Below are positions 1 through 32,852 of a stretch of 64,000 bases of DNA, in pieces. This DNA comes from Vicinamibacterales bacterium (GTDB lineage: Bacteria; Acidobacteriota; Vicinamibacteria; Vicinamibacterales; JAMQPK01). The stretch's first letter is position 1, and the number at the start of each line of letters is the position of its first letter. The position numbers and the translations under genes were made by a program. Under the pieces are notes generated by a model that made no database searches, was not told the DNA's origin, and saw only the letters and a list, made by a program, of their open reading frames with translations. The stretch spans positions 899,209 to 963,208 of the forward strand of contig CAVVBP010000010.1 in NCBI GenBank assembly GCA_963746535.1, written 5' to 3'.

Positions 1-1201
1 ACGCGTAACAGGATGAGCGAGGTGGTCATCCGTTCTCACAAGTTTCATAACACCAGCAGCCGTAAGCGCGACGGCAATAGCCGCGGCGCCTGCCGCGATC
101 AGAATCACACGACGATGCGCACGCGTTGACAGGGAGCTCACGAGCGGGTTGGATGTCGTTTCGAGATCGACGCCGCGCGTCGCCAATATCGCGAAGCCGT
201 TGCTTCGGATCTTTCTCGAAACAACGCCGCAACAGCTCGCGCACTGCTGGCGGCGTGGCGGTCGGCAGCACGGACCAGTCGGGCTCGCGCTCGAGGATGG
301 CTGCAATGACATCCGAGACGGTCTGGCCCCGAAACGCCAAGCGGCCGGTGAGCATTTCATAGAGCACGCAACCGAACGCCCAGATGTCGGTGCGCTTATC
401 GACCGGCAGCGCCGCGTGCCTGCTCGGGGCTCATGTACGGCGGGTGTGCCGAAAATAGCGCCTTCCCGGGTGGCCAGCGTCTCGGTCGCCGGCGCGTTCG
501 ATTGATTCGATGAATGCGCGAACTTCGCCAGCCCGAAGTCCAGCACTTTCACCTGGCCGTCTGCCGTGAGTTTGATGTTCCCGGGCTTGAGATCGCGATG
601 GATGATGCCTTTTTCGTGTGCGGCGTCGAGCGCTTCGGCAATCTGTCGCGCGATCTTCAGCGCATCGCCCATCGAGACAGGTCCCTTGCAGGATCCGCTC
701 GGCGAGTGTGGGCCCTTCCACGAGCTCCAACACCAGCGCCGCGATGCCAGACGATTCCTCAAATCCGTGAATGGTGCCGATGTGCGGGTGGTTTAGTGAA
801 GCAAGTACCCGCGCCTCGCGCTGGAACCTGGAGAGGCGTTCAGGATCGGACGCAATGCCGGCCGGCAGCACTTTGATCGCCACATCGCGACCGAGCTTTG
901 TATCGCGCGCGCGATACACTTCGCCCATCCCGCCCGCGCCGAGCAGCGAGTCAATTCGATAGACGCCGATCTGTTTGCCGATCAGCTCTTCCGTGCCAAT
1001 CCCCAATCCCGAATCCCGAATCCCTAGTCCTGTTCCGAGTGCGTCAGCGCGACTCTGATTGGCGAGCAGGGATTCCACCTCCCCGCGCAGCACATCGTCG
1101 CCAGCGCACGCGTCGCGCACGAACGCCGCACGATCAACCGGCGAGCGCTCGAGCGCGTCGTGACAGATGTCTTCGATGCGCCGCCAGCGGTCGCCGCTCA
1201 T
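1..1201 (-). pseudogene. Ser/Thr protein kinase (ECF43-linked type); 3' end lies beyond window start; four +1 frameshifts as assembled
   Basis: ORF 431..1201 gives the [20 protein letters not shown]-domain plus kinase N-lobe ([17 protein letters not shown]). HRDLKPGNI and DFG are readable in the frame opening at 672. ORF 26..367 gives the C-lobe ([10 protein letters not shown]). A TM segment [17 protein letters not shown] lies in a frame that stays open to nt 1. The start overlaps the upstream kinase stop (ATGA). Confidence 0.85.
996..1030 (-). repeat. GGGATT-family hexamer tract inside kinase linker coding sequence (encodes [11 protein letters not shown])
   Basis: Minus strand reads GGGATTCGGGATTCGGGATTGGGGATTGG, four G-runs with 3-4 nt loops. 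It sits at the same position in all three kinase paralogs. Confidence 0.8.
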
Positions 1202-4079
1202 TCCCTAGTCACGCCCGAGCGTTCGGCGAGCACGATGTCGCTCGACCATTGGACGTAGCCCATGATGAGGGACGAACCGTCGCTGCTCCAGGCCATGCCC
1301 CGCAGATACACGCCGGGCCGGAGGTCCGGCAACTTCCGCGGTGGCTGAGTACCGCCAGGCTCGAAAATCCAGATGTACCCCGCACGTGGGCCGGGCAGTC
1401 CCGCGACGGCCAAAAGCCGCCCATCTGGTGACCAGGACATGAAACCGTTGCCGAACAGGTCTGCGACATCCGGCAGTCCGGTGTAGAGCGGCTTGCCAGT
1501 GCTGCTTACAAAACGCAGCACCGCCGGTGACGGTTCCACGTACGCGATCACATCTTCGCGCGGCGACCAGGCCGGCGCGTGCGCCGCAAGCGGCGTAGAC
1601 ACGCGGCGAGTACGCCCGTCGGCCACCGATACGATGGAGAGACCCGGTACCTTAGCTCCCGGCGTCGCGTACACAATCTCGCGTCCGTCGGGCGACCGAG
1701 CTGAGAGTGTCGAGTACGTCTGCAACAAGAACGAGGCGTGGGGCACCACCCTCGGCGCTCACCACCCAGATACCGCGGCGTCCACCGCGATCCGACACGA
1801 ATGCCACTTGCTGTCCGTCTGGAGAGAACACGGGCCTATCGTCCAGCGCAGGACCCGACGTCAATGGTGTCGGTTGGGTGAGATTTCCCGCCGCCGTCCA
1901 GATGTGACGGTTGCCGTCACGAGACGAGCTGAATAACAAGCGCTGCCCGTCGCGGGACCAGGACGGATCGAAGTCGCCGGTGAAACCATCGGTCAGTGGC
2001 TCGAGCTCGATGGGACGGTCGAATACCACCTGAGCACGCACCAGCCTCTGTCGTGCGTCCACCGACGTGGCGACAAGCCGGCGGCCGTCTGGTGTCACAG
2101 AAGGCGCACCATACTCCCCGACACCGGTCGTCAACCGATGATCCAGTCCCGTCCGAAAGTCGCGCCACCAGAGGCTGAGATCGACGCTGTCTGGATTTGC
2201 CGCATAGTAGAGGCCACGGCCATCAGGACTTGGAAAAGGATATGCCGCGCGCCGCGCGCTCTTCACAACGGGTTCAATCGCGCCGCTGGACGCCAGCGCT
2301 CGATACACCTCCGTCGGCTCGGTGTTGAAATTCTGAATCCCGTAGTTGAAGTAAATGTACTGTCCATCCGGCGACCACCGTGTCCAGTGGATGTGCCGGC
2401 CGTTCTGTATCGGAACAAGCTCGCGTACGTTCTGCCCGTCGGCATCGGCGATGCCAAGGGCGTCGCCCGCGGAACCTCTCCCGCGCGTGAATGAAACCTG
2501 CTTGCCGTCGGGAGACCAGTGGAGGCCGGAATCGGGTGCTTTCAAAAGGGGCCGCGGAACTCCACCAAGCGGGGCTGCAATGACCCACGAATACGTGCCC
2601 ACCTGATCTGGCCGTCGGGCGTCGAAAGCGATCTGCGTTCCGTCGGGCGAGATGTCGAGACCGCTGATGAAATCCTGCGACTGCACGACAAGGCCCGTCG
2701 ACGCGGTGAGGTTAGCTGGATCACCGCCCGCCACGAACTTGACCCAGACGTCAGTCTGTCCGCGGGCGTCCGAGAGATACGCGACCCACTTGCCATCCGG
2801 GGAGATGGCAGGCGCGAATCTGTACGCCGGGGTCGACACCAGTCGCACGATACGATCGAACACGGGGACGGCGTCGGGCGCAGTGCGCAGGGCCAGAACG
2901 GCGATGAGTGTGGCACTCACACCCGCGGTCGCCGAAAGGGCGCTCCAGAGGAGCGTCGATCGGCGGGCGCTCTTGATCGGTTTTGAGGGTGACGCCGTGG
3001 TCGTTTGCAGCGAAGGCCCATCAACGTCTTTCAGCACCGCGCGCGCGTCGCCGATGTCGCGAAGGCGGAGCTTCGGGTCCTTCTCGAGACAATGGCGCAT
3101 CAACCGCAGGACCGCGGGAGGAGTAGCCGCTGGTAGTGCGGTCCAGTCGGGCTCGCGGTCCACGACCGCAGCTAACGTGTCGGTGATCGTCGCGCGTAAG
3201 AAGGACGCCCTCCGCGTCAGCATTTCGTACAACACGCAACCGAACGCCCAGATGTCGGCGCGCTTATCGACCGGCTGGCCGCGCGCCTGCTCGGGGCTCA
3301 TGTAGGCGGCCGTCCCGAGGATCGCGCCTCCACGCGTCCCACCGACGGTCACCGTCGGCGACTGGGTCAGATCCGGTCCGCGACTCGCCGGCAAACACCT
3401 TGGCCAGGCCAAAGTCGAGCACCTTCACGACGCCGTCGGGCGTGATCTTGATATTGGCAGGCTTCAGATCCCGGTGGACGATCCCTCTCTCATGCGCAGC
3501 ATCGAGCGCATCCGCGATCTGCTTCGCGATCCCCAGCGCTTCGCTAAGGGAGAGCGGACCCTTCGCCACACGATCGGCTAACGTCAGGCCCTCAACCAGT
3601 TCCAACACCAACGCACGGTGCTCCGTCCGACTCCTCGACGCCGTAGATCGCCGCCGATGTGTGGATGATTGAGCGACGCGAGCATGCGTGCCTCGCGCTC
3701 GAAGCGTGCCAGCCGGTCGGGATCCGTCGTAAACGCGCGCGGGCAAGAACTTGACGGCCACATCGCGCCCCAGCTTCGTATCGCGCGCGCGATAGACCTC
3801 GCCCATCCCGCCCGCACCGAGCAGCGACACAACCTTGTAAACGCCGATCTGCGTACCGATCAGCTCTTCCGTACGCATTCCCAATCCCGAATCCCGAATC
3901 CCTAATCCCGTTCCGACTGCGTCCGCGCGACTCTGGTTGGCGAGCAGGGATTCCACCTCCCCGCGCAGCACATCGTCGCCAGCGCACGCGTCGCGCACGA
4001 ACGCCGCACGATCATCCGGACGGCGCTCGAGCGCGTCGTGGCAGATGTCTTCGATACGCCGCCAGCGGTCGCCGCTCAC
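1198..4079 (-). pseudogene. Ser/Thr kinase - TM - PD40/TolB-like beta-propeller; multiple frameshifts as assembled
   Basis: Fragments are collinear with the intact paralog 5023..7890. ORF 3264..4160 has [19 protein letters not shown] from GTG 4079, HRDLKPANI and DFG. ORF 3584..3832 has [27 protein letters not shown] 1652..3412 has MSPEQARG, the C-lobe, a TM and SPDG-type propeller repeats. ORF 1198..1749 holds the last blades. Confidence 0.85.
3878..3910 (-). repeat. GGGATT-family hexamer tract inside kinase linker coding sequence
   Basis: Minus strand reads GGGATTAGGGATTCGGGATTCGGGATTGGG, five G-runs. It encodes [11 protein letters not shown]. Confidence 0.8.
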
Positions 4080-4159
4080 TTCTTCAGTCAGCGAGTGTAA
4101 GGAACAGGCATCGGGACTCGAGCCCGTGAGGGATTGTACTTGCCCTCCGCAACTTCCCA

Positions 4160-4232
4160 TGGCCCATTTCGGGGGGCTTTCCCGCCTCTCTGTCCACGGC
4201 CGGAATGCCCCGGCCGCGAGGAGGGCGTCGCG
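4160..4232 (+). promoter_or_regulatory. Conserved 5' leader of the HExxH gene family, diverged copy
   Basis: TGGCCCATTTCG...TTTCCCGCC block, then hairpin GGCCGG-aatgcc-CCGGCC, then SD GAGGAGGG 6 nt before ATG 4233. Partial anti-SD pairing remains (CGCCT with GGGCG). Confidence 0.45.
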
Positions 4233-4832
4233 ATGGGCCGTCTTACCCGAGTTGCTGGATTGGTGCTATGCGCGGCAATGACAGGCTGGCAGCCGGCGGC
4301 AGCTCAGACACCGGAGCGTCTCAGGGTGAAGGTGCTGCTTCAGGACGAAGCCGGGGCGCCAGCCGACCTGCTCGAAGAGGCAAAACGCGCGGCCGCGCGC
4401 GTGTTCGGGCTCTCGAACATCGACCTCGAGTGGCTCGAACCCGGGCCCTATCAGCCTCGCTCTCTCACCCTGAGGGTTGTGGCGGCACCGATCGGCACCG
4501 AGAGCCGTCATCGCTTCGTCCTGGGGATGGCGCCGGGAACGCTAAAGGCACGGGGGATCATCGCCTTCGCCTTCTATGACCGCATTCAGATCTACGGTGC
4601 GGACCTCGGACTCGATGGCTCTCAGATGCTCGGCCATGTGATCGCGCACGAACTCGGTCATCTGCTGCTGCCGTATGACGCGCATTCCCTTACGGGCGTT
4701 ATGCGTAGGGGTTGGGATGAAGCCCAGGCGAACCAGGCAAGGATGGGACTACTGACGTTTACACCACATCAGGCGGCGCTGATACGCGAGCGTCTGTCCG
4801 CTTCCCCTTCGCGTCATGCACCTGCCCGATGA
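4233..4832 (+). CDS. Small secreted HExxH metalloprotease-like protein, paralog 1
   Basis: In frame within ORF 4134..4832; ATG 4233 has an SD. Signal-peptide-like [25 protein letters not shown]. Motif [23 protein letters not shown]. Confidence 0.75.
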
Positions 4833-5022
4833 CGAGAGTAGTGAACAGGCACAGTTATGGCACCATAGCCAGCCGACGGCGATGGTCGGTTAGTGCGGCA
4901 GTTGCTGCATCCACCCGATGGCAATCATGTTCGTCGAGGCTTCCTGGGGCAGGTGGAAAGCCAAGACCTACGCGCGAACGCGCGACCTCAAGACGCAGGG
5001 GCGTGTCGCGCTCAAGCTTGCC

Positions 5023-7890
5023 CTATGGACCGCGGTCGTTCAACCAGAAGTGATCGAACATGACAATGTGACTGACCTCGTCGTTCCGGTTGACGACGAC
5101 TGCGCGTCCCTCGTCGGTCCAACCGGCCCGGAACGTGACGTGAAACGGCAGTCTAGCGGCAATTCGCGACTGGCCCGTCGCGACGTCGAAAATTCGAACG
5201 ACATCGTGCTCGCGGTCTTCGCGAAACGGCGCGCTGATCTCTCGTCCATCCGGCCTGAAAACGGGCAGTGAGTAATTGCCGCCCGTAACAGGCCGCTCCC
5301 AGACAGGCGCACCCCGTTCCACGTCGATGAGTCGCACACCACTGCCAGCGCTCGAGCCCGTCGTGACGATCCACGTACCGCTCCCGTCTGGGCGAGCGAT
5401 CCAGTCGCCGCGGAATCCCTGATCCAACAGCTTCTCCGGCGACCCTCCCGAGGCGCGGATCCGCCAGGTTTCTTGCCGATCGACACGATAGGTCTGATAC
5501 GCAATCCATTCACCATCAGGCGACCATACCGGCCAGGAATCGGCAGGCTCATCACTTGTGAGCTGCCGCAGGTCGGAACCATCGACTCGCTGGGTCCAGA
5601 TGTCCGAATGTCCCGATGCAATCGACGCAAACGCCACGCGTGTGCCGTCCGGTGACAGTGAGGAGTGTGAGATCGCATCACCCGGCACCGTTGTGATCTG
5701 GGATAGGTGCGCGCCGGGATCGGGAGGTGCAGTCCACAGATTGCGGCTGCCACTCGCCGGACTGTTGAAGAGCATTGTTCGTCCATCACGGGACACGAAC
5801 GTCCACAGAGGACCCGCGAACTCGCCAATCAGTCGAACTGCGGCTCGCCCGTTCGTGTCGGGATCGGACCCGAGCGGAACCTTCCAGATTTCCTGTAAGT
5901 AATGGAGGCGTGTCGCGATCAGACGCGATCCGTCAGCCGACACACTTGGTGCATAGAGCCCGTCTCCGACGGTCGTTGTCAGGCGAACGATGGAGCCGTC
6001 CTGGGTATCGAGGACGCCAAGATCGGCGGGCGCCTGCTGTCTCGCCAGCGGCAGGTAGGAAATGACCAGATGCCGGTTGTCTGGCAACCACACCGGCTGT
6101 CCGCCGTCATTGGCGGTCGAGAGCTGCGCCACTCGACGCTGCTGTCCTGTCGACGCATCGACGACGAACACATTGGTCGGTCCGAAAAGCGCCCCATCCG
6201 AATACGTGATCGAGCGGCTATCGGGAGACCACGCTGGACGGCCAACATTGTTTCTGATGCGTTCGACGAGCGTTCGAGCGCCGCTCCCGTCGAGCGCCAT
6301 CACGCCAATGGTCCAGCCATCCTTCCCGCGGGTCAGATATGCCAGGCGTTTTCCATCAGGTGATGGTGCCGGCGTCTGCGCGCTGTCGATGACCTTTCGC
6401 GGTTGTCCGCCCAACGCGCCGGTTCGCCAGATTCCGGTGCCGGCCTCGTCGATGCGCGTGTAATAGATCGTGTCCCCGTCGGGGGCGAAGGCCGGGCGCT
6501 CTTCTTCCGCGGCGTCGCTCGTGAGCCGGACTGGCTCGCCTCCCGACACCTGACGCAGATAGATGTCTGGTGTACCGCCATGATTCGACACGAAGACGAA
6601 CGACCGACCGTCAGGAGACAGTGATCCTCCGGACTCGGTCCCGTCGTAGTTGGTGAGCTGGCTTGCAATTATTCGCGCAGGCACTCCTCCGGAAGACGAT
6701 ACCGTTGCAAGCCGGGTCAACGCGATCGCAACGACGACGGCGCTGATTACAACCCCGGCAATCGCGCCCGCGGCAACCAGAGGCCAGCGCAGGGGCTTTC
6801 TCCCGGACTCAAGCGCTGAATCGGGTTCAGGGGCTGGCGCTCCAGAAGGCGCATCGTCCAACTCGATCCGCGCATCGGCGATGTCGCGCAGTCGTTGGCG
6901 GACGTCCGTTTCAAGACATCGCTGAATCAGACGAGTGATTGGTCGTGGTGTCGCCGAGAGGATAGACCAGTTCGGTCTGCCTTCGACCACAGCGGCCAAC
7001 GTGTCGGTCAGAGTGTCCCGCGCGAAGGCGGCGCGGCCCGCCAACATCTCGTACAGGACGCAGCCGAACGCCCAGATGTCCGTACGCTTATCCACTGGCA
7101 ACCCGCGCGCCTGTTCGGGGCTCATGTAGGCGGGTGTGCCGAAAATGGCGCCTTCCCGGGTGGCTAGCGTCTCGGTGGCCGGCATGCCCGATTGATTCGA
7201 TGAGTGCGCAAACTTCGCCAGGCCGAAGTCCAGCACTTTCACCTGGCCCTCTGCCGTGAGCTTGATGTTCGCGGGCTTCAGGTCGCGATGAACAATCCCT
7301 TTCTCGTGGGCGACATCCAACGCTTCGGCAATCTGCCGCGCGATCTTCAGCGCCTCGCCCATCGAGACCGGCCCTTTAAGGATTCGCTCGGCGAGCGTCG
7401 GGCCTTCCACGAGCTCCAACACCAGCGCCGCGATGCCATCGGATTCCTCGAATCCGTGAATCGCGCCGATGTGCGGATGGTTCAGGGAGGCGAGCACGCG
7501 CGCTTCGCGTTGGAACCTGGTGAGGCGCTCGGGATCGGACGCAATGCCGGCCGGCAGCACTTTGATGGCGACATCCCGCTGCAGCTTCGTATCTCGCGCG
7601 CGATACACTTCGCCCATCCCGCCCGCGCCGAGCAGCGACACCACCTTGTAAACGCCGATCTGCGTACCGATCAGCTCTTCCGTGCTCATCCCCAATCTCG
7701 AAGCACGAATCCCGAATCCCGTTCCGAGTGCGTCCGCCCGACTCTGGTTGGCGAGCAGCGATTCCACTTCGGCGCGCAGGCCCTCGTCGTTGCCGCACGT
7801 CTCGCGCACGAACGTCGACCGCTCGCCCGGAGCGTGCTCGAGCGCGGCGTACACGATCTCTTCGACCCGCCGCCAGTCGCTAATCTCCAA
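5023..7890 (-). CDS. Ser/Thr protein kinase - TM - PD40/TolB-like beta-propeller (intact, 955 aa)
   Basis: ORF 5023..7890 with a TTG start 15 nt after the sigma stop. N-domain EISDWRRVEEIVYAALE; [36 protein letters not shown] segment LVAAGAIAGVVISAVVVAIAL. Many SPDG/WSPDG propeller repeats. Confidence 0.9.
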   Translation of the reverse strand: MEISDWRRVEEIVYAALEHAPGERSTFVRETCGNDEGLRAEVESLLANQSRADALGTGFGIRASRLGMSTEELIGTQIGVYKVVSLLGAGGMGEVYRARDTKLQRDVAIKVLPAGIASDPERLTRFQREARVLASLNHPHIGAIHGFEESDGIAALVLELVEGPTLAERILKGPVSMGEALKIARQIAEALDVAHEKGIVHRDLKPANIKLTAEGQVKVLDFGLAKFAHSSNQSGMPATETLATREGAIFGTPAYMSPEQARGLPVDKRTDIWAFGCVLYEMLAGRAAFARDTLTDTLAAVVEGRPNWSILSATPRPITRLIQRCLETDVRQRLRDIADARIELDDAPSGAPAPEPDSALESGRKPLRWPLVAAGAIAGVVISAVVVAIALTRLATVSSSGGVPARIIASQLTNYDGTESGGSLSPDGRSFVFVSNHGGTPDIYLRQVSGGEPVRLTSDAAEEERPAFAPDGDTIYYTRIDEAGTGIWRTGALGGQPRKVIDSAQTPAPSPDGKRLAYLTRGKDGWTIGVMALDGSGARTLVERIRNNVGRPAWSPDSRSITYSDGALFGPTNVFVVDASTGQQRRVAQLSTANDGGQPVWLPDNRHLVISYLPLARQQAPADLGVLDTQDGSIVRLTTTVGDGLYAPSVSADGSRLIATRLHYLQEIWKVPLGSDPDTNGRAAVRLIGEFAGPLWTFVSRDGRTMLFNSPASGSRNLWTAPPDPGAHLSQITTVPGDAISHSSLSPDGTRVAFASIASGHSDIWTQRVDGSDLRQLTSDEPADSWPVWSPDGEWIAYQTYRVDRQETWRIRASGGSPEKLLDQGFRGDWIARPDGSGTWIVTTGSSAGSGVRLIDVERGAPVWERPVTGGNYSLPVFRPDGREISAPFREDREHDVVRIFDVATGQSRIAARLPFHVTFRAGWTDEGRAVVVNRNDEVSHIVMFDHFWLNDRGP
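7688..7722 (-). repeat. Degenerate GGGATT-family tract in kinase linker coding sequence
   Basis: Minus strand reads GGGATTCGGGATTCGTGCTTCGAGATTGGGG, encoding GFGIRASRLGM. Same position as in the other two kinases but decayed. Confidence 0.6.
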
Positions 7891-7905
7891 TCCCTAATCC
7901 CTAAA
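7887..7905 (-). repeat. TTAGGG-like hexamer tract forming the sigma-kinase intercistronic spacer
   Basis: Minus strand reads TTTAGGGATTAGGGATTGG between the sigma stop (7906) and the kinase TTG (7890). It is purine-rich and may serve as the SD. Confidence 0.7.
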
Positions 7906-8559
7906 TCACTTTCTCCGGAGCTCCCTAAGCAACCAAAGTTTGGCCATCGTCCAGTCGCGCTTCACCGTTCGCACCGACATATCCAGGGCTTCGGCCGTTT
8001 CCTCGATGCTCAACCCGCCAAAGAAGCGCAGCTCGACCACCTGGCTTTTTCTCGGGTCGATCTGCTCCAACGCTTTCAGCGCGTCGTCCAGCGCGATGAC
8101 ATCCGCAGGCTGTTCCACGACACCAACTCGACCTTCGTCGAGCGTCACGTTGTGCGCACCAGCGCCGCGCTTCTGGTATCCGCGGGCGCGCGCACCGTCG
8201 ACCAGGACTTGTCGCATGAGGCGCGAAGACATCGCAAAAAAGTGCGCACGGTCCTGCCATTTGACTTGCCGGGAGTCGACCAGCTTGAGGTAGGCCTCAT
8301 TGACGAGCGCGGTCGGCTGAAGGGTGTGCCCCACGCGCTCGTGTCCCATATGCCGGCGGGCAATGCGGCGCAACTCGGCATGGACCATGGGAACGAGGCG
8401 ATCGAACGCAGCGTCATCGCCGTGTCCCCAGGCCAGGAGGAGCGCCGTTACCTCGGGGTTTGCAGGAATTGGCACCGGAAACCGAGCCGGCGCCCATTCT
8501 ATCCGTCGTTCCTGTCCGGCGTCGTCCTTTCCTCCCACTAATCCCTCCCCAATCCCCAA
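7906..8559 (-). CDS. ECF sigma factor, STK-associated type (ECF43 / Sigma70_ECF PF07638-like)
   Basis: VTALLLAWGHGDDAAFDRLVPMVHAELRRIARRHM..HTLQPTALVNEAYLKLV, with a C-terminal region-4 HTH (LSIEETAEALDMSVRTVKRDW). The longest ORF starts at TTG 8559 inside a repeat; the true start is probably internal, e.g. GTG 8475. Confidence 0.85.
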   Translation of the reverse strand: MGIGEGLVGGKDDAGQERRIEWAPARFPVPIPANPEVTALLLAWGHGDDAAFDRLVPMVHAELRRIARRHMGHERVGHTLQPTALVNEAYLKLVDSRQVKWQDRAHFFAMSSRLMRQVLVDGARARGYQKRGAGAHNVTLDEGRVGVVEQPADVIALDDALKALEQIDPRKSQVVELRFFGGLSIEETAEALDMSVRTVKRDWTMAKLWLLRELRRK

Positions 8560-8563
8560 TCAC
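8531..8563 (-). repeat. GGGATT-family hexamer tract upstream of, or in the 5' end of, the sigma ORF
   Basis: Minus strand reads GTGATTGGGGATTGGGGAGGGATTAGTGGGAGG. Confidence 0.7.
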
Positions 8564-8579
8564 TGTTCGGGTGCCCCGA

Positions 8580-8652
8580 TGGCCCTTTTCGCTCCCGTTT
8601 CCCGCCTCCGGGTTCACGGCCGGGATTCACCCGGCCCCCGGAGGAGGACGAG
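8580..8652 (+). promoter_or_regulatory. Conserved structured 5' leader of HExxH paralog 2 (SD-sequestering helix)
   Basis: TGGCCCTTTTCGCTCCCGTTTCCCGCCTCC is identical in three copies. CCTCCGGG (8605-8612) pairs with CCCGGAGG (8637-8644, overlapping the SD). This encloses the hairpin GGCCGGG-ATTCA-CCCGGCC (8618-8636). ATG at 8653. Confidence 0.55.
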
Positions 8653-9240
8653 ATGGGCCGGGCAGTTTGGATTGCTGGACTGGGGTTGGTGGCGGCTCTC
8701 GCAGCAAGCGATCGCTGCGCTGCGGAAACCATCGAACCGTTGGCCCTCGAGGTACTCGTAATTGACGAGGTGGGTGTTCCCGCCGACACGCTGCGGCAGG
8801 CCCAACAGGAAGCGAGTCGCATCTTAGGAGCTGTGGGGATCAGGCTCGTATGGGTCAGTGGCCAAATGCCGCAGGGTGCTCGTTATCTCGTCATCAGGGT
8901 CATCTCGGAGCCCATGAGCCCCATGACCAGGAACGCTAGTGTGCTCGGCACAGCGGCGTCCTCCAAGAGCAACGGCGCGACGACGGCATCGCTTTTCTAT
9001 GAGCGAATAGTCCAGGAGTCTGGCCGACTTGGAGTTGACGCTTCCCTTCTGCTCGGCCACGTGATGGCGCACGAGATGGGGCATCTACTCCTTCCAGGTG
9101 GATCGCACACACCAACGGGATTGATGAAAGCCGGCTGGGATAGACACCAGTCGGTGCTGGCGTCGACCGGCAAATTGACTTTCGCGCCCAACCAGGCGTC
9201 GCTGATTCGTGCGCGCCTCAGCACGCGAACGAATCCCTAA
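8653..9240 (+). CDS. Small secreted HExxH metalloprotease-like protein, paralog 2
   Basis: ORF 8653..9240. Signal-peptide-like MGRAVWIAGLGLVAALAASDRCAAE. Motif HVMAHEMGHLLLPGGSHTPTGLM. Confidence 0.8.
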   Translation: MGRAVWIAGLGLVAALAASDRCAAETIEPLALEVLVIDEVGVPADTLRQAQQEASRILGAVGIRLVWVSGQMPQGARYLVIRVISEPMSPMTRNASVLGTAASSKSNGATTASLFYERIVQESGRLGVDASLLLGHVMAHEMGHLLLPGGSHTPTGLMKAGWDRHQSVLASTGKLTFAPNQASLIRARLSTRTNP

Positions 9241-9283
9241 TCCCCAATCCCTCAGCCCTAAGCCTTCAGCCTTCAGCCCTCCG
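9232..9283 (-). repeat. Hexamer (CCCTAA/CCCCAA) plus heptamer (CAGCCYT x4) tract between paralogs 2 and 3
   Basis: Plus strand reads AATCCCTAATCCCCAATCCCTCAGCCCTAAGCCTTCAGCCTTCAGCCCT. Minus strand has GGG-ctga-GGG-att-GGGG-atta-GGG. It overlaps the paralog 2 stop codon. Confidence 0.8.
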
Positions 9284-9289
9284 TCCCCC

Positions 9290-9361
9290 TGGCCCTTTTC
9301 GCTCCCGTTTCCCGCCTCCCCGTTCACGGCCGGGATTGACCCGGCCCCTGGGGAGGACGAG
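9290..9361 (+). promoter_or_regulatory. Conserved structured 5' leader of HExxH paralog 3
   Basis: Same 30-nt block. The outer helix is CCTCCCCG (9315-9322) with TGGGGAGG (9349-9356), with two base pairs swapped G-C to C-G relative to copies 2 and 4. Inner hairpin GGCCGGG-ATTGA-CCCGGCC. Confidence 0.55.
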
Positions 9362-9949
9362 ATGGGCCGCACGGGTTGGATCGCAATGGTCGCGCTCTGG
9401 GGAACGCTGATGGGCGCATCAGATGTGGCGGCAGAAGCCTCTGGCCCCATCACGATTCACGCGCGGATCCTTGACGAAGTCGGCCTTCCGGCGAGGACAG
9501 TCCAGCAGGCACAGGATGAGACCAGCCGCATCTTCAAGAGCGCCGGAATCGCGCTGTCATGGCTAACCGACGGTAACTCGCAGGCAGGTACCCTGACGAT
9601 CAAAATCGTCTCGACTCCGCTCGGTTCGAAGGGCAAGAAACAAAACGTGCTCGGCATGGCTCCAGGCTCCAGGGAGACGCGCGGAAGGGTCGCTTGGCTG
9701 TTCTATCCGCGTATTGCCGATCTGGCCGAGGCGCGTCGCATTGAGATCTCGCGGTTTCTGGGTCATGTCATGGCGCACGAGATGGGCCATCTCCTCTTGC
9801 CGTTCGGCTCGCACGCGGTCATCGGACTGATGAAGGACAGCTGGGACTCCCATCAGATTCTTCTTGCATCAGCGGGCACCCTGACGTTCGAACCGAGCCA
9901 GGCCGCGTTGATCCGTGCGCGGCTGCGGGAAACGTCGTCGGGCAACTGA
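9362..9949 (+). CDS. Small secreted HExxH metalloprotease-like protein, paralog 3
   Basis: In frame in ORF 9209..9949; ATG 9362 follows the SD GGGGAGG. Signal-peptide-like MGRTGWIAMVALWGTLMGASDVAAE. Motif HVMAHEMGHLLLPFGSHAVIGLM. Confidence 0.8.
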   Translation: MGRTGWIAMVALWGTLMGASDVAAEASGPITIHARILDEVGLPARTVQQAQDETSRIFKSAGIALSWLTDGNSQAGTLTIKIVSTPLGSKGKKQNVLGMAPGSRETRGRVAWLFYPRIADLAEARRIEISRFLGHVMAHEMGHLLLPFGSHAVIGLMKDSWDSHQILLASAGTLTFEPSQAALIRARLRETSSGN

Positions 9950-10032
9950 CGAGAAACACGAACCCGCTAGACAATTCCTTCTGGCCCTTTTCGAGGCGGA
10001 CTCCCACACGCTGCCGCCGAGCTGATGAAGGG

Positions 10033-10085
10033 GCCTAAGCCTTAGTCCCCAATCCCTCAGCCCTCAGCCTTAAGCCTTCAGCCCT
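10033..10085 (-). repeat. Hexamer/heptamer tract between paralogs 3 and 4
   Basis: GCCTAAGCCTTAGTCCCCAATCCCTCAGCCCTCAGCCTTAAGCCTTCAGCCCT. Same architecture as 9232-9283. Confidence 0.8.
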
Positions 10086-10089
10086 CCGA

Positions 10090-10162
10090 TGGCCCTTTTC
10101 GCTCCCGTTTCCCGCCTCCGGGTTCACGGCTGGGACTTCCCCGGCCCCCGGAGGGAAGCGAG
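10090..10162 (+). promoter_or_regulatory. Conserved structured 5' leader of HExxH paralog 4
   Basis: Same 30-nt block. CCTCCGGG (10115-10122) pairs with CCCGGAGG (10147-10154). Inner hairpin GGCTGGG-ACTTC-CCCGGCC with one G-U wobble. Confidence 0.55.
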
Positions 10163-10759
10163 ATGGGCCAAACGTGCAGAATCGCGGGATTGGTGATGGC
10201 GGCGGTCCTAGTGGGAAGTACGAGGTCGGCGGCCGGACCACTGGAACCGCTGACCTTGGAGGTGCTCGTCCTCGACGGGGTCGGCGTGCCGGCCGATATC
10301 CTCCAACAGGCCCAAGACGAAGCCAGCCGCATCTTCGAGCTTTCCGGCATCCGCCTCGTATGGGCTGGCGGCCGAACCCCGAATGCCCGACACGTGATCC
10401 TCAAAATCGCCTCGGCACCACCCAGCCGCAAGAGTCGCCAACCCGGCGTTCTCGGCCTTGCTGTCGAGACAAACCAAGCCACCGGCATCCTCGCATGGCT
10501 TTTTTACGACCGGATTGACGAGCATCGGCGGGTGCTCGGACTGGAGGCGCCACTGCTCCTGGGTCACGTGATGGCGCATGAAATGGGCCACCTCCTGCTG
10601 CCTACAGGGTCGCACGTGCAGAGCGGGGTCATGAGGGGCGGTTGGGACAAGTTGCAGGCCTCACTCGCGAAATCTCGAAGCCTGCGCTTCGGACCGGATG
10701 AGACCCGCGAGATCCGGGCGCACCTGCTGCGCGACAGCAATCTCGTCGCGATGCGCTAG
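10163..10759 (+). CDS. Small secreted HExxH metalloprotease-like protein, paralog 4
   Basis: ORF 10163..10759. Signal-peptide-like MGQTCRIAGLVMAAVLVGSTRSAAG. Motif HVMAHEMGHLLLPTGSHVQSGVM. Confidence 0.8.
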   Translation: MGQTCRIAGLVMAAVLVGSTRSAAGPLEPLTLEVLVLDGVGVPADILQQAQDEASRIFELSGIRLVWAGGRTPNARHVILKIASAPPSRKSRQPGVLGLAVETNQATGILAWLFYDRIDEHRRVLGLEAPLLLGHVMAHEMGHLLLPTGSHVQSGVMRGGWDKLQASLAKSRSLRFGPDETREIRAHLLRDSNLVAMR

Positions 10760-11830
10760 CGACGTCCAAGGCGCGCTATTGCCCAGCGCAGGTGCTCGCC
10801 AACCACCGGGTCCGATATCGACGGCTCCGAGGGTTCCTCGCGTAATGCCTCGAGCGCGCCGGGGTCGTTCGAGTTTCCGATTGTTACGGCGAGATTACGG
10901 CGCAGCCCTCGTACCCCCGCCCGCGTCATGGACGTCTCTCCGATGAGCCCGGCAAGATCGCTATCGGTGCGCCGCCAGAGATCAACAAGACTCTGCGCGT
11001 TCAAATCGCCGCGCGAGGACCACGACGGATCGACGGGGACGGACCGGCACCGCGTTCCACGGGCACACTTCCTGACAGATATCGCAGCCGAAGATGTGAT
11101 TGCCGATGCCCTCGCGATGCTCTTCTGGAATCGAGCCACGGTACTCGATGGTGAGATACGAGATGCATTTAGTCGCGTCCAGCACATGGGGCGCCGCAAA
11201 GGCACCAGTGGGACAGGCCTCGAGACAGAGCGTGCACGTGCCGCACTGGTCGAGCGAGGGCGAGTCGGCCTCGAGCGGCAGGCTGCAGACGATCGTGCCC
11301 AGCAGCAGCCACGACCCGAGATCGGGATTGATCACGCACGTGTTCTTGCCAATCCAACCGACGCCCGCGTACTGCGCGTAGACACGCTCCTGCACCGGTC
11401 CGGTATCGACATAGGCGCGTGCATCGAAGGGTTCCGTATGCTGCGACCGCATCCAGGCAAGGAGCGCATCGAGGCGCTCACCCAGCACGTCGTGGTAGTC
11501 GCGGCTCCAGGCATAGCGCGCCACTTCCCCGCGCTCGGGATCGTGACGCTCGATCGAATACGGCTCGCCGGTGTTGTAGAGCGCGCCAACGACGATCACC
11601 GAGCGCGCCGTCGGTATGACATTGCGCACGTCGGCGCGTCGCTCGGCCGATCGGGGAAGATACCCCATCGTGCCGGCGTAGCCTTTCGCAATCCACTGCT
11701 TGAAGAAGCCGAGCTCGGGAAAGGCTTCCGCGGGCGCGACGCCGCACAGCTCGAATCCGAGCTCGCGCGCGCGACTCTTTACCGCAACGCTGGTGAGGCT
11801 ATCTTTCGACGCAGAGTCGCAGAGCCGCAC
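10756..11830 (-). CDS. queG: Epoxyqueuosine reductase QueG (one frameshift near 11040 as assembled)
   Basis: The middle of ORF 10982..12208 has KSRARELGFELCGVAP, two 4Fe-4S motifs (CGTCTLCLEACP, CDICQEVCPWN) and TKCISYLTIE. The C-terminal HEAT-like tail is in ORF 10756..11205. The start (GTG 11830) is uncertain. Confidence 0.75.
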
Positions 11831-13546: not shown

Positions 13547-13620
13547 TGTCATGGCAGATGGCAAATGGCAAATGGCAAAGAGTTCCTGCTGCCATCAGCC
13601 ATCTGCCATGTGCCATGACA
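13547..13620. repeat. TGCCAT-hexamer imperfect hairpin element (intercistronic)
   Basis: TGTCATGGCAGATGGCAAATGGCAAATGGCA, an 11-nt loop, then TGCCATCAGCCATCTGCCATGTGCCATGACA. Arms are about 31 nt and mostly complementary. Confidence 0.8.
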
Positions 13621-15266: not shown

Positions 15267-15346
15267 TGTCATGGCAGATGGCAAATGGCAGATGGCAGAG
15301 CTGTCCCTTGCCATCATCCATCTGCCCTCTGCCATTTGCCATGACA
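15267..15346. repeat. TGCCAT-hexamer imperfect hairpin element (intercistronic)
   Basis: TGTCATGGCAGATGGCAAATGGCAGATGGCAGAG ... TTGCCATCATCCATCTGCCCTCTGCCATTTGCCATGACA. Confidence 0.8.
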
Positions 15347-32714: not shown

Positions 32715-32754
32715 AACGGTCTAGGATACAAGAACTTACGTTGACGCCGCAAGT

Positions 32755-32818
32755 GATTAGGGATTGGGGATTAGCAGGGATCCGGGCCCCTAATCCCGAA
32801 TCCCCAATCGCCAATCCC
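32755..32818. repeat. GGGATT-family hexamers in inverted-repeat arrangement
   Basis: GATTAGGGATTGGGGATTAGCAGGGAT, then ccgggc, then CCCTAATCCCGAATCCCCAATCGCCAATCCC. There are G-runs on both strands. Confidence 0.75.
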
Positions 32819-32819
32819 T

Positions 32820-32852
32820 GTGAATGTGGCAGCGTTACGCTGCCACATTCAC
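32820..32852 (-). other. Perfect 15-bp-stem hairpin centred on the hsp20 stop codon
   Basis: GTGAATGTGGCAGCG-TTA-CGCTGCCACATTCAC. The TTA centre is the reverse complement of the hsp20 TAA. No U-tract follows. Confidence 0.8.

Follow-up and report, generated by a model that had tools for sequence, protein, structure and literature searches.

A recurrent bipartite element upstream of tandem metzincin-like protease genes in Vicinamibacterales: probable sigma factor promoter and 5′-UTR hairpin

Four copies of a ca. 73-nt element precede the four HExxH genes in the window (i.e., the whole 64,000-nt stretch of DNA that was analysed; Table 1), and each copy is probably a sigma factor-dependent promoter joined to a 5′-UTR hairpin, in which a stretch resembling an anti-Shine-Dalgarno (anti-SD) sequence is incidental or inactive. 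In that case, every secreted metzincin-like protease gene would have its own copy as a compact unit of expression. More specifically, block 1 (TGGCCC plus TTTTCG) and block 2 (TTTCCCGCCTCC) would act as the -35 and -10 of a promoter recognised by the ECF43-like sigma factor of the divergent gene, which would be activated once the Thr in its QPTA motif is phosphorylated by the Ser/Thr kinase encoded alongside. Transcription would start at the CA conserved within TTCAC, ca. 10 nt 3′ of CCCGC, so that the mRNA would begin 1-3 nt before a 7-bp GC hairpin. This 5′-terminal hairpin would most likely serve as an mRNA stabiliser or a protein-binding site, and would be followed by an exposed GGAGG Shine-Dalgarno (SD) sequence and the ATG. 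The CCTCC sequence would in turn be part of the promoter DNA and absent from the native mRNA, with SD masking conceivable solely in RNAs that enter from upstream.

The first-pass annotation, made from the sequence letters, had described four copies in front of four HExxH genes, and all of its coordinates were confirmed against the sequence. Positions 1-30 are indeed identical in copies 2-4, and the downstream proteins (195-199 aa each) have diverged as described, being mutually 44-51% identical. The pairing arms CCTCCGGG/CCCGGAGG (copies 2 and 4) and CCTCCCCG/TGGGGAGG (copy 3), the hairpin GGCCGGG-loop-CCCGGCC with its G-U pair in copy 4, and a stray 12-mer at 9982-9993 were all retrieved as well. 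At up to two mismatches, the 12-mer pattern matched 15 times vs. 5.3 +/- 2.2 times in shuffles. The four window copies matched the element profile with E-values of 1e-17 to 5e-22 (the profile having been built with these same four), and independent support came from profile matches in other genomes and metagenomes (E = 1e-7 to 1e-22). The recurrence of the element is thus far beyond chance.

Table 1. Coordinates of the element copies, their parts and the neighbouring genes within the window.
Feature	Position	Strand	Remark
Element copy 1	4160-4232	+	ends at ATG of HExxH gene 4233-4832
Element copy 2	8580-8652	+	ends at ATG of HExxH gene 8653-9240
Element copy 3	9290-9361	+	ends at ATG of HExxH gene 9362-9949
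Element copy 4	10090-10162	+	ends at ATG of HExxH gene 10163-10759
Truncated orphan copy (block 1 and degenerate continuation)	9982-10002	+	no gene behind; after HExxH gene 3
Block 1 (TGGCCCTTTTCG), predicted -35 and T-tract, copy 2	8580-8591	+	near-invariant in 42 copies
Block 1, copies 1, 3, 4	4160-4171 (TGGCCCATTTCG), 9290-9301, 10090-10101	+	equivalent positions
Block 2 (TTTCCCGCCTCC), predicted -10 and discriminator, copy 2	8598-8609	+	near-invariant, fixed distance from block 1
Block 2, copies 1, 3, 4	4178-4189, 9308-9319, 10108-10119	+	equivalent positions
SD helix 5′ arm (CCTCCGGG), copy 2	8605-8612	+	pairs with 8637-8644 (CCCGGAGG); folds; co-variation weak
Predicted transcription start, conserved CA of TTCAC, copy 2	8615-8616	+	from short-distance homologues and coordinates
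Predicted transcription starts, copies 1, 3, 4	4195-4196, 9325-9326, 10125-10126	+	equivalent positions
Apical hairpin GGCCGGG-ATTCA-CCCGGCC, copy 2	8618-8636	+	41/42 copies fold
Apical hairpins, copies 1, 3, 4	4197-4216, 9328-9346, 10128-10146	+	equivalent positions
SD GGAGGAGG of HExxH gene 2	8640-8647	+	ATG at 8653
Other SDs	about 4218-4225, 9349-9355, 10150-10155	+	copies 1, 3, 4
HExxH gene 2	8653-9240	+	195 aa, signal-peptide-like N-terminus, HEMGHLLLPGGSH motif, metzincin-like predicted fold
ECF sigma factor gene (TIGR02999 / PF07638)	7906-8538	-	divergent from copy 2; true start may be GTG at 8475
Ser/Thr protein kinase gene, PD40/TolB-like beta-propeller repeats	5023-7890	-	directly downstream of sigma gene
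Second kinase/PD40 gene	1652-4079	-	divergent from copy 1; split into overlapping ORFs 3264-4160 and 1652-3412

Scans with the proteins, covering genomes and metagenomes, yielded 132 loci (L-numbered), and the element profile matched only Vicinamibacterales MAGs and related soil contigs. Each of the 42 distinct copies ran up to the ATG of an HExxH gene, and tandem arrays were frequent. Upon alignment, block 1 TGGCCCTTTTC and block 2 were near-invariant (columns 5-15 and 24-35), with an 8-nt spacer of variable sequence whose length was constant in 41/42 copies (and 1 nt longer in the other). Block 2, of which the last 5 nt correspond to the previously proposed anti-SD (CCTCC), is followed by three variable nt, a conserved (G)T(T/C)CAC, the hairpin, a GGAGG-type SD and the ATG. 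The TNCAC that stays unpaired between the helices is conserved and puts a CA dinucleotide at the homologous +1 position, and the conservation of ATGGGCC at the start is unusual for a region that encodes a signal-peptide N-terminus.

At 9982-9993, the stray 12-mer forms the start of a truncated extra copy of the element, to which a covariance model matched at 9978-10024 (E = 0.02). A comparable truncated copy (block 1, spacer and part of block 2) is located at 4329-4354 in L001, after the last gene of the array, and such orphan copies are probably left over from the loss of genes or from unequal recombination in the array. A mobile-element or MITE reading was ruled out because the element always lies at a fixed distance from the ATG of a homologous gene, across genomes.

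The HExxH proteins share an invariant HEMGHLLLPxGSH stretch, and Pfam and NCBIfam searches with them gave no match. With an AlphaFold2 model (pLDDT 69), Foldseek returned weak matches (E about 4e-3, TM 0.4-0.5) that were consistently metzincin catalytic domains (i.e., fragilysin, MMPs, karilysin and archaemetzincin), and a PDB profile search likewise gave a weak pointer to fragilysin. At the nucleotide level, the HEMGH codons (CACGAGATGGGCCAT; 9073-9087, 9775-9789 and 10576-10590) nearly repeat the surroundings of the start codon (ACGAGATGGGCC; 8649-8660, 9358-9369 and 10159-10170), to the point that both regions have 12 identical nt in common in gene 3, and both are reverse-complementary to block 1.

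A sigma-dependent promoter in the invariant 5′ block, as suggested earlier, agrees with the comparative data, i.e., the synteny, the two blocks and a motif kept in distant relatives. Indeed, distant HExxH homologues (Bryobacterales and others; ca. 30% protein identity) keep G-N4-TTTTCG-N8-TTCCGC upstream of the gene, and this bipartite motif was found in 16/107 of their upstream regions vs. 2.2% of background windows (p = 2e-9). The apical hairpin and CCTCC are absent in the distant homologues with the motif, CCTCC being conserved solely in the long-leader clade. Moreover, the motif lies 8-9 nt from the start codon in L022, L028, L031 and L048, compared with 22-26 nt or 39-45 nt elsewhere and 45-49 nt in the window family, and the predicted start at the CA follows from these shortest distances. 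In L031 and L048 an in-frame stop is situated two codons before the ATG, an SD is missing and the N-terminus is that of a typical signal peptide, so that the layout looks leaderless. A motif positioned 9 nt before such an SD-less start fits the -10 of a leaderless mRNA, and not a part of an SD-masking leader.

Some further variation was noted among the distant loci. The more distant L072, L073 and L084 carry unrelated hairpins at the position of the apical hairpin. L084 also has a second good bipartite motif (CAGTTTTCGTCCGCCGTTCCCGCCTCCA; 1083-1110) downstream of its HExxH gene with no HExxH homologue after it, which hints at possible further genes in the regulon. A further large set of distant HExxH genes (L012-L014, L068-L071, L076, L081, L091, L096, L114, L118-L120, L124, L128 and L129) is preceded by TTAGCTCGTCA and, ca. 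35 nt later, CATTGAGGTAC, without the bipartite motif, and this pair may reflect another kind of promoter or regulation within the gene family.

Acidobacteriota abound in kinase-activated ECF43-like sigma factors, for which the literature searched gave no description of targets. At nearly every locus with flanking sequence, the HExxH array is divergent from a sigma factor gene 72-99% identical to that of the window and from its kinase gene, and the same arrangement recurs, across the Acidobacteriota, at Bryobacterales and other distant loci (sigma factor 48-67% identical). No other regulator gene is conserved at these loci. Region 2.2 of the window sigma factor reads LQPTALVNEAYL, with QPTA in place of the acidic DAED motif, and an anti-sigma gene is missing; the uncharged Thr motif is thus found together with an adjacent Ser/Thr kinase, as is typical of the ECF43 type. 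An uncharged Thr motif instead of DAED is the hallmark of kinase-activated ECF43 sigma factors (PMC8999054, PMC13147305). By motif and neighbourhood, the window sigma factor therefore appears to match the phospho-activated ECF43 sigma factors. The ECF43/Hanks-type kinase pairs EcfP-PknT (Vibrio parahaemolyticus) and EcfK-PknS (Xanthomonas citri) similarly have a sigma factor gene adjoining a Ser/Thr kinase gene without an anti-sigma gene, and replace DAED by STTA or QTTA. Unlike in these pairs, the window kinase has a PD40 beta-propeller sensor part, and the predicted regulon is a tandem array of mini-metzincins. The motif G-N4-TTTTCG-N8-TTCCCGC can thus be put forward as a candidate promoter motif for the kinase-activated ECF43-like sigma factors of Acidobacteriota, and the tandem secreted mini-metzincins as their first candidate regulon.

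The window elements display by homology a TGGCCC-N17-CGCC arrangement with a T-tract after the -35, which is the geometry of ECF promoters. ECF target promoters are exemplified by GGAACTT-N16-TCTGA for RpoE and TGAAAC-N16-CGTA for SigW, and the element resembles them in having two short blocks ca. 17 nt apart, a T-tract after the -35, an adjoining sigma factor gene and a small dedicated regulon. However, ECF promoters are marked by a -35 with AAC and a -10 with CGT (PMC8103513), in place of which the predicted promoter has GGCCC and CCGCC, so that the T-tract and the CG of the -10 are its sole resemblance to the ECF consensus. Also unlike in ECF promoters, the motif is absent upstream of the sigma factor gene itself (no minus-strand copy was found there), and there is accordingly no sign of autoregulation. 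A published promoter motif for the ECF43/TIGR02999 group was not found in the literature searched, and the EcfK papers give none. Among sigma-70-type promoters and intrinsic terminators in 3900-11000, none was relevant and none was located between the genes.

The regions upstream of the first element of an array contain a conserved CATTGTACC / CATTCTATCC (4133-4138 and 8496-8501, minus strand), which recurs at the same position in L004, L006, L007, L008, L019 and L062. Its minus-strand sequence, TACAAT / TAGAAT, would make a good housekeeping -10 for the operon of the divergent kinase or sigma factor, and the Bryobacterales loci have GATTATAC (TATAAT) at the housekeeping -10 position. If used, the box at 8496-8501 implies that the sigma factor starts at GTG 8475 and not at 8538. 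The split second kinase/PD40 gene is either a frameshifted pseudogene or the result of a sequencing error, and a third kinase fragment is present at 173-1186.

With regard to RNA structure, the conservation claimed earlier for the apical hairpin was borne out: 41/42 copies fold into it, and some of the changes are compensatory. The loop-closing pair varies between G-C (17), C-G (7), U-G (5) and U-A (1), and the L008a hairpin (GACCGG/CCGGTC) displays a compensated G-C to A-U change. Furthermore, none of 5000 permutations (0/5000) paired non-cognate arms as well as the cognate ones. The hairpin was judged from per-sequence folds because its 3′ arm is misaligned between subfamilies in the MAFFT and model-based alignments, and RNAalifold on the model-based alignment, with this misaligned arm, returned no consensus structure. 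A conserved 5′-UTR stem-loop with compensatory changes is thus well supported as far as sequence comparison goes, its position at the 5′ end of the mRNA being a prediction. Stem-loops that stabilise a transcript from its 5′ terminus are known from the E. coli ompA 5′ UTR and the B. subtilis aprE leader, in which a stable hairpin likewise lies a few nt from the 5′ end (a predicted one in our case) and is followed by a strong SD; aprE, too, encodes a secreted protease.

The first-pass annotation had instead regarded the element as an SD-sequestering translational control RNA, and this claim is not well supported, since the anti-SD coincides with the 3′ end of the predicted -10 (and would therefore not be transcribed from that promoter) and the inner pairs of the helix are broken. 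Such a leader RNA, which we deem unlikely, would comprise the whole 73 nt, transcribed from an unrecognised upstream promoter, and its stacked hairpin would mask the SD and the start codon through helices of block 1 with the AUG region, of CCUCCNNN with the SD, and of the apical hairpin, to be opened by heat, ligand or protein. It would account for the unusual conservation of ATGGGCC, and full-length element folds were indeed more stable than shuffles (z = -2.4 to -4.6), whereas constructs starting at CUCC were not (z = -0.3 to -2.0). Partition-function folding also predicted the SD to be paired when the whole element is transcribed (P unpaired 0-0.16), compared with an accessibility of 0.65-0.87 in copies 2-4, and 0.23 in copy 1, for RNA beginning at the predicted start. 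The annotation had further staked its reading on where transcription starts: the homology-predicted start lies 3′ of the anti-SD arm, which speaks against it, while the pairing of the SD in the full RNA is in its favour. As for the SD helix itself, the outer five pairs (CCUCC/GGAGG) are almost invariant in the 42 copies, and they pair automatically, as any good SD is complementary to CCUCC. Solely the inner three pairs can show co-variation, and these are unpaired in 16-23/42 copies. Cognate arms had an advantage of 0.6-0.8 kcal/mol, with 29/5000 and 42/5000 permutations as good when relatedness is ignored, so that co-variation of this helix is weak, and the pair swaps between copies 2/4 and copy 3 that had been advanced as compensatory proof amount to a single lineage event (w3, L002b and L056c). 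Moreover, the region 5′ of block 1 has no conserved sequence that could act as a promoter, the stretch with the highest conservation (TTTCCCG) would end up as an unpaired internal loop, the conserved unpaired TNCAC would be left without a role, and the homologues with the motif 8-9 nt from the start codon leave no space for a leader. An Rfam search, as the annotation had proposed, gave no match at the gathering score in the whole window, and a search by E-value of positions 8400-10300 yielded chance-level eukaryotic matches alone (E = 0.5-0.9). Although a hairpin with possible pairing between a CCUCC-type anti-SD and an SD directly before the start codon recalls the ROSE and fourU thermometers, the element differs from these in having its anti-SD in a predicted promoter, in lacking convincing co-variation and an Rfam match, and in its helix, which is GC-rich and very stable and has none of the weak or mismatched pairs that thermometers typically contain. 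In more general terms, a promoter with CCTCC in its -10 region will always resemble an SD-sequestering riboregulator when viewed from sequence alone.

Nonetheless, the complementarity of both blocks to the initiation region exceeds the level expected from composition, a property that a pure promoter does not need. Block 1 can pair with the start-codon region CGAGAUGGGCC in most copies (z down to -3.9, family mean -1.45). For block 2 and the SD, z averaged -0.5 in the family and -1.1 among distant lineages, L113, L050 and L072 reaching p = 0.004-0.018. As a structure, the helix of block 1 with CGAGAUGGGCC (P1) was rejected: its complementarity is real, but co-variation is nil, in that cognate arms pair no better than non-cognate ones, and that compensating changes are missing both from the six copies whose start region is altered and from L003, where it is block 1 that has changed. 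The block 1 pairings in L072, L073 and L084 were likewise discarded, having failed the shuffle and permutation test. This complementarity, together with the L110/L111 hairpin described below and the clade-limited CCTCC, keeps in contention both a leader RNA, for which complementarity above composition in several lineages counts, and a dual use of the promoter sequence. In the latter, which we consider unlikely, the non-template strand of an ECF promoter (block 1 and CCTCC) would complement the SD and AUG, so that RNAs from upstream (i.e., from the previous gene of the array or from stray promoters) would fold back and stay untranslated, be cut or be terminated, and only sigma-initiated RNAs would be translated, providing a tight off-state for secreted proteases. 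All of the promoter evidence applies to this scenario as well, and it would make use of the complementarity of both blocks, of the switch in predicted SD accessibility with the RNA 5′ end, and of the tandem genes without terminators between them. In L110 and L111, moreover, a near-perfect 14-17 bp hairpin has its 5′ arm spanning the predicted start site (z = -5.3). A precedent exists in IS10/Tn10, for which Davis, Simons and Kleckner reportedly described protection from external promoters (fold-back inhibition) in 1985. The likeness to IS10/Tn10 and IS50, hypothetical for the element, is that an own promoter would start inside an inverted repeat and that the RBS-masking arm would be present only in read-through RNAs, although here a chromosomal protease array and not a transposase is concerned. 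However, no co-directional gene lies upstream of the first gene in any array, the co-variation is weak and lineage-dependent, block 1 complementarity to the start region is missing outside the Vicinamibacterales family, and pairing of a pyrimidine-rich promoter strand with a purine-rich SD readily arises from composition alone. If true, fold-back would be a rare chromosomal case of promoter choice deciding translatability, and would afford Tn10-like protection to a secreted-protease array under kinase and sigma factor control. Finally, the inverted repeats (GGCCGG..CCGGCC and CCTCCGGG..CCCGGAGG) could as DNA bind a dimeric repressor over -10 to +30. The palindromes do overlap the predicted -10 and start site, and short-leader homologues have similar ones (e.g., TTCCGCC-N6-GGCGGAGGAA in L050). 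Such an operator is nevertheless very improbable, given outer arms at least 26 nt apart, differing compensated hairpin variants within one genome (e.g., L008a and L008b), and the sigma factor and kinase being the sole conserved regulator genes at the locus.

Apart from the element, tandem heptamer repeats (AATCCCT, CCAATCC, CAGCCCT and AAGCCTT) are scattered through the window (996-1024, 3879-3910, 7688-7721, 7880-7904, 8546-8561, 9232-9280 and 10054-10086) and also occur upstream of the elements in L001, L002 and L005. C-rich, G-poor arrays occupy the gaps between the tandem HExxH genes and are situated just 5′ of the elements, and on the minus strand (AGGGATT)n directly precedes two start codons, GTG 8538 of the sigma factor and TTG 7890 of the kinase. 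The arrays are possibly Rho-loading sites or SD-like enhancers. In addition, opposed heptamer arrays make up long inverted repeats at 13548-13620, 15271-15342 and 32753-32852, with (ATGGCAA)4...(TGCCATC)4 occurring twice and (GGGATTA)n...(TAATCCC)n being followed by a second hairpin, and these look like a genome-wide family of intergenic hairpin elements.
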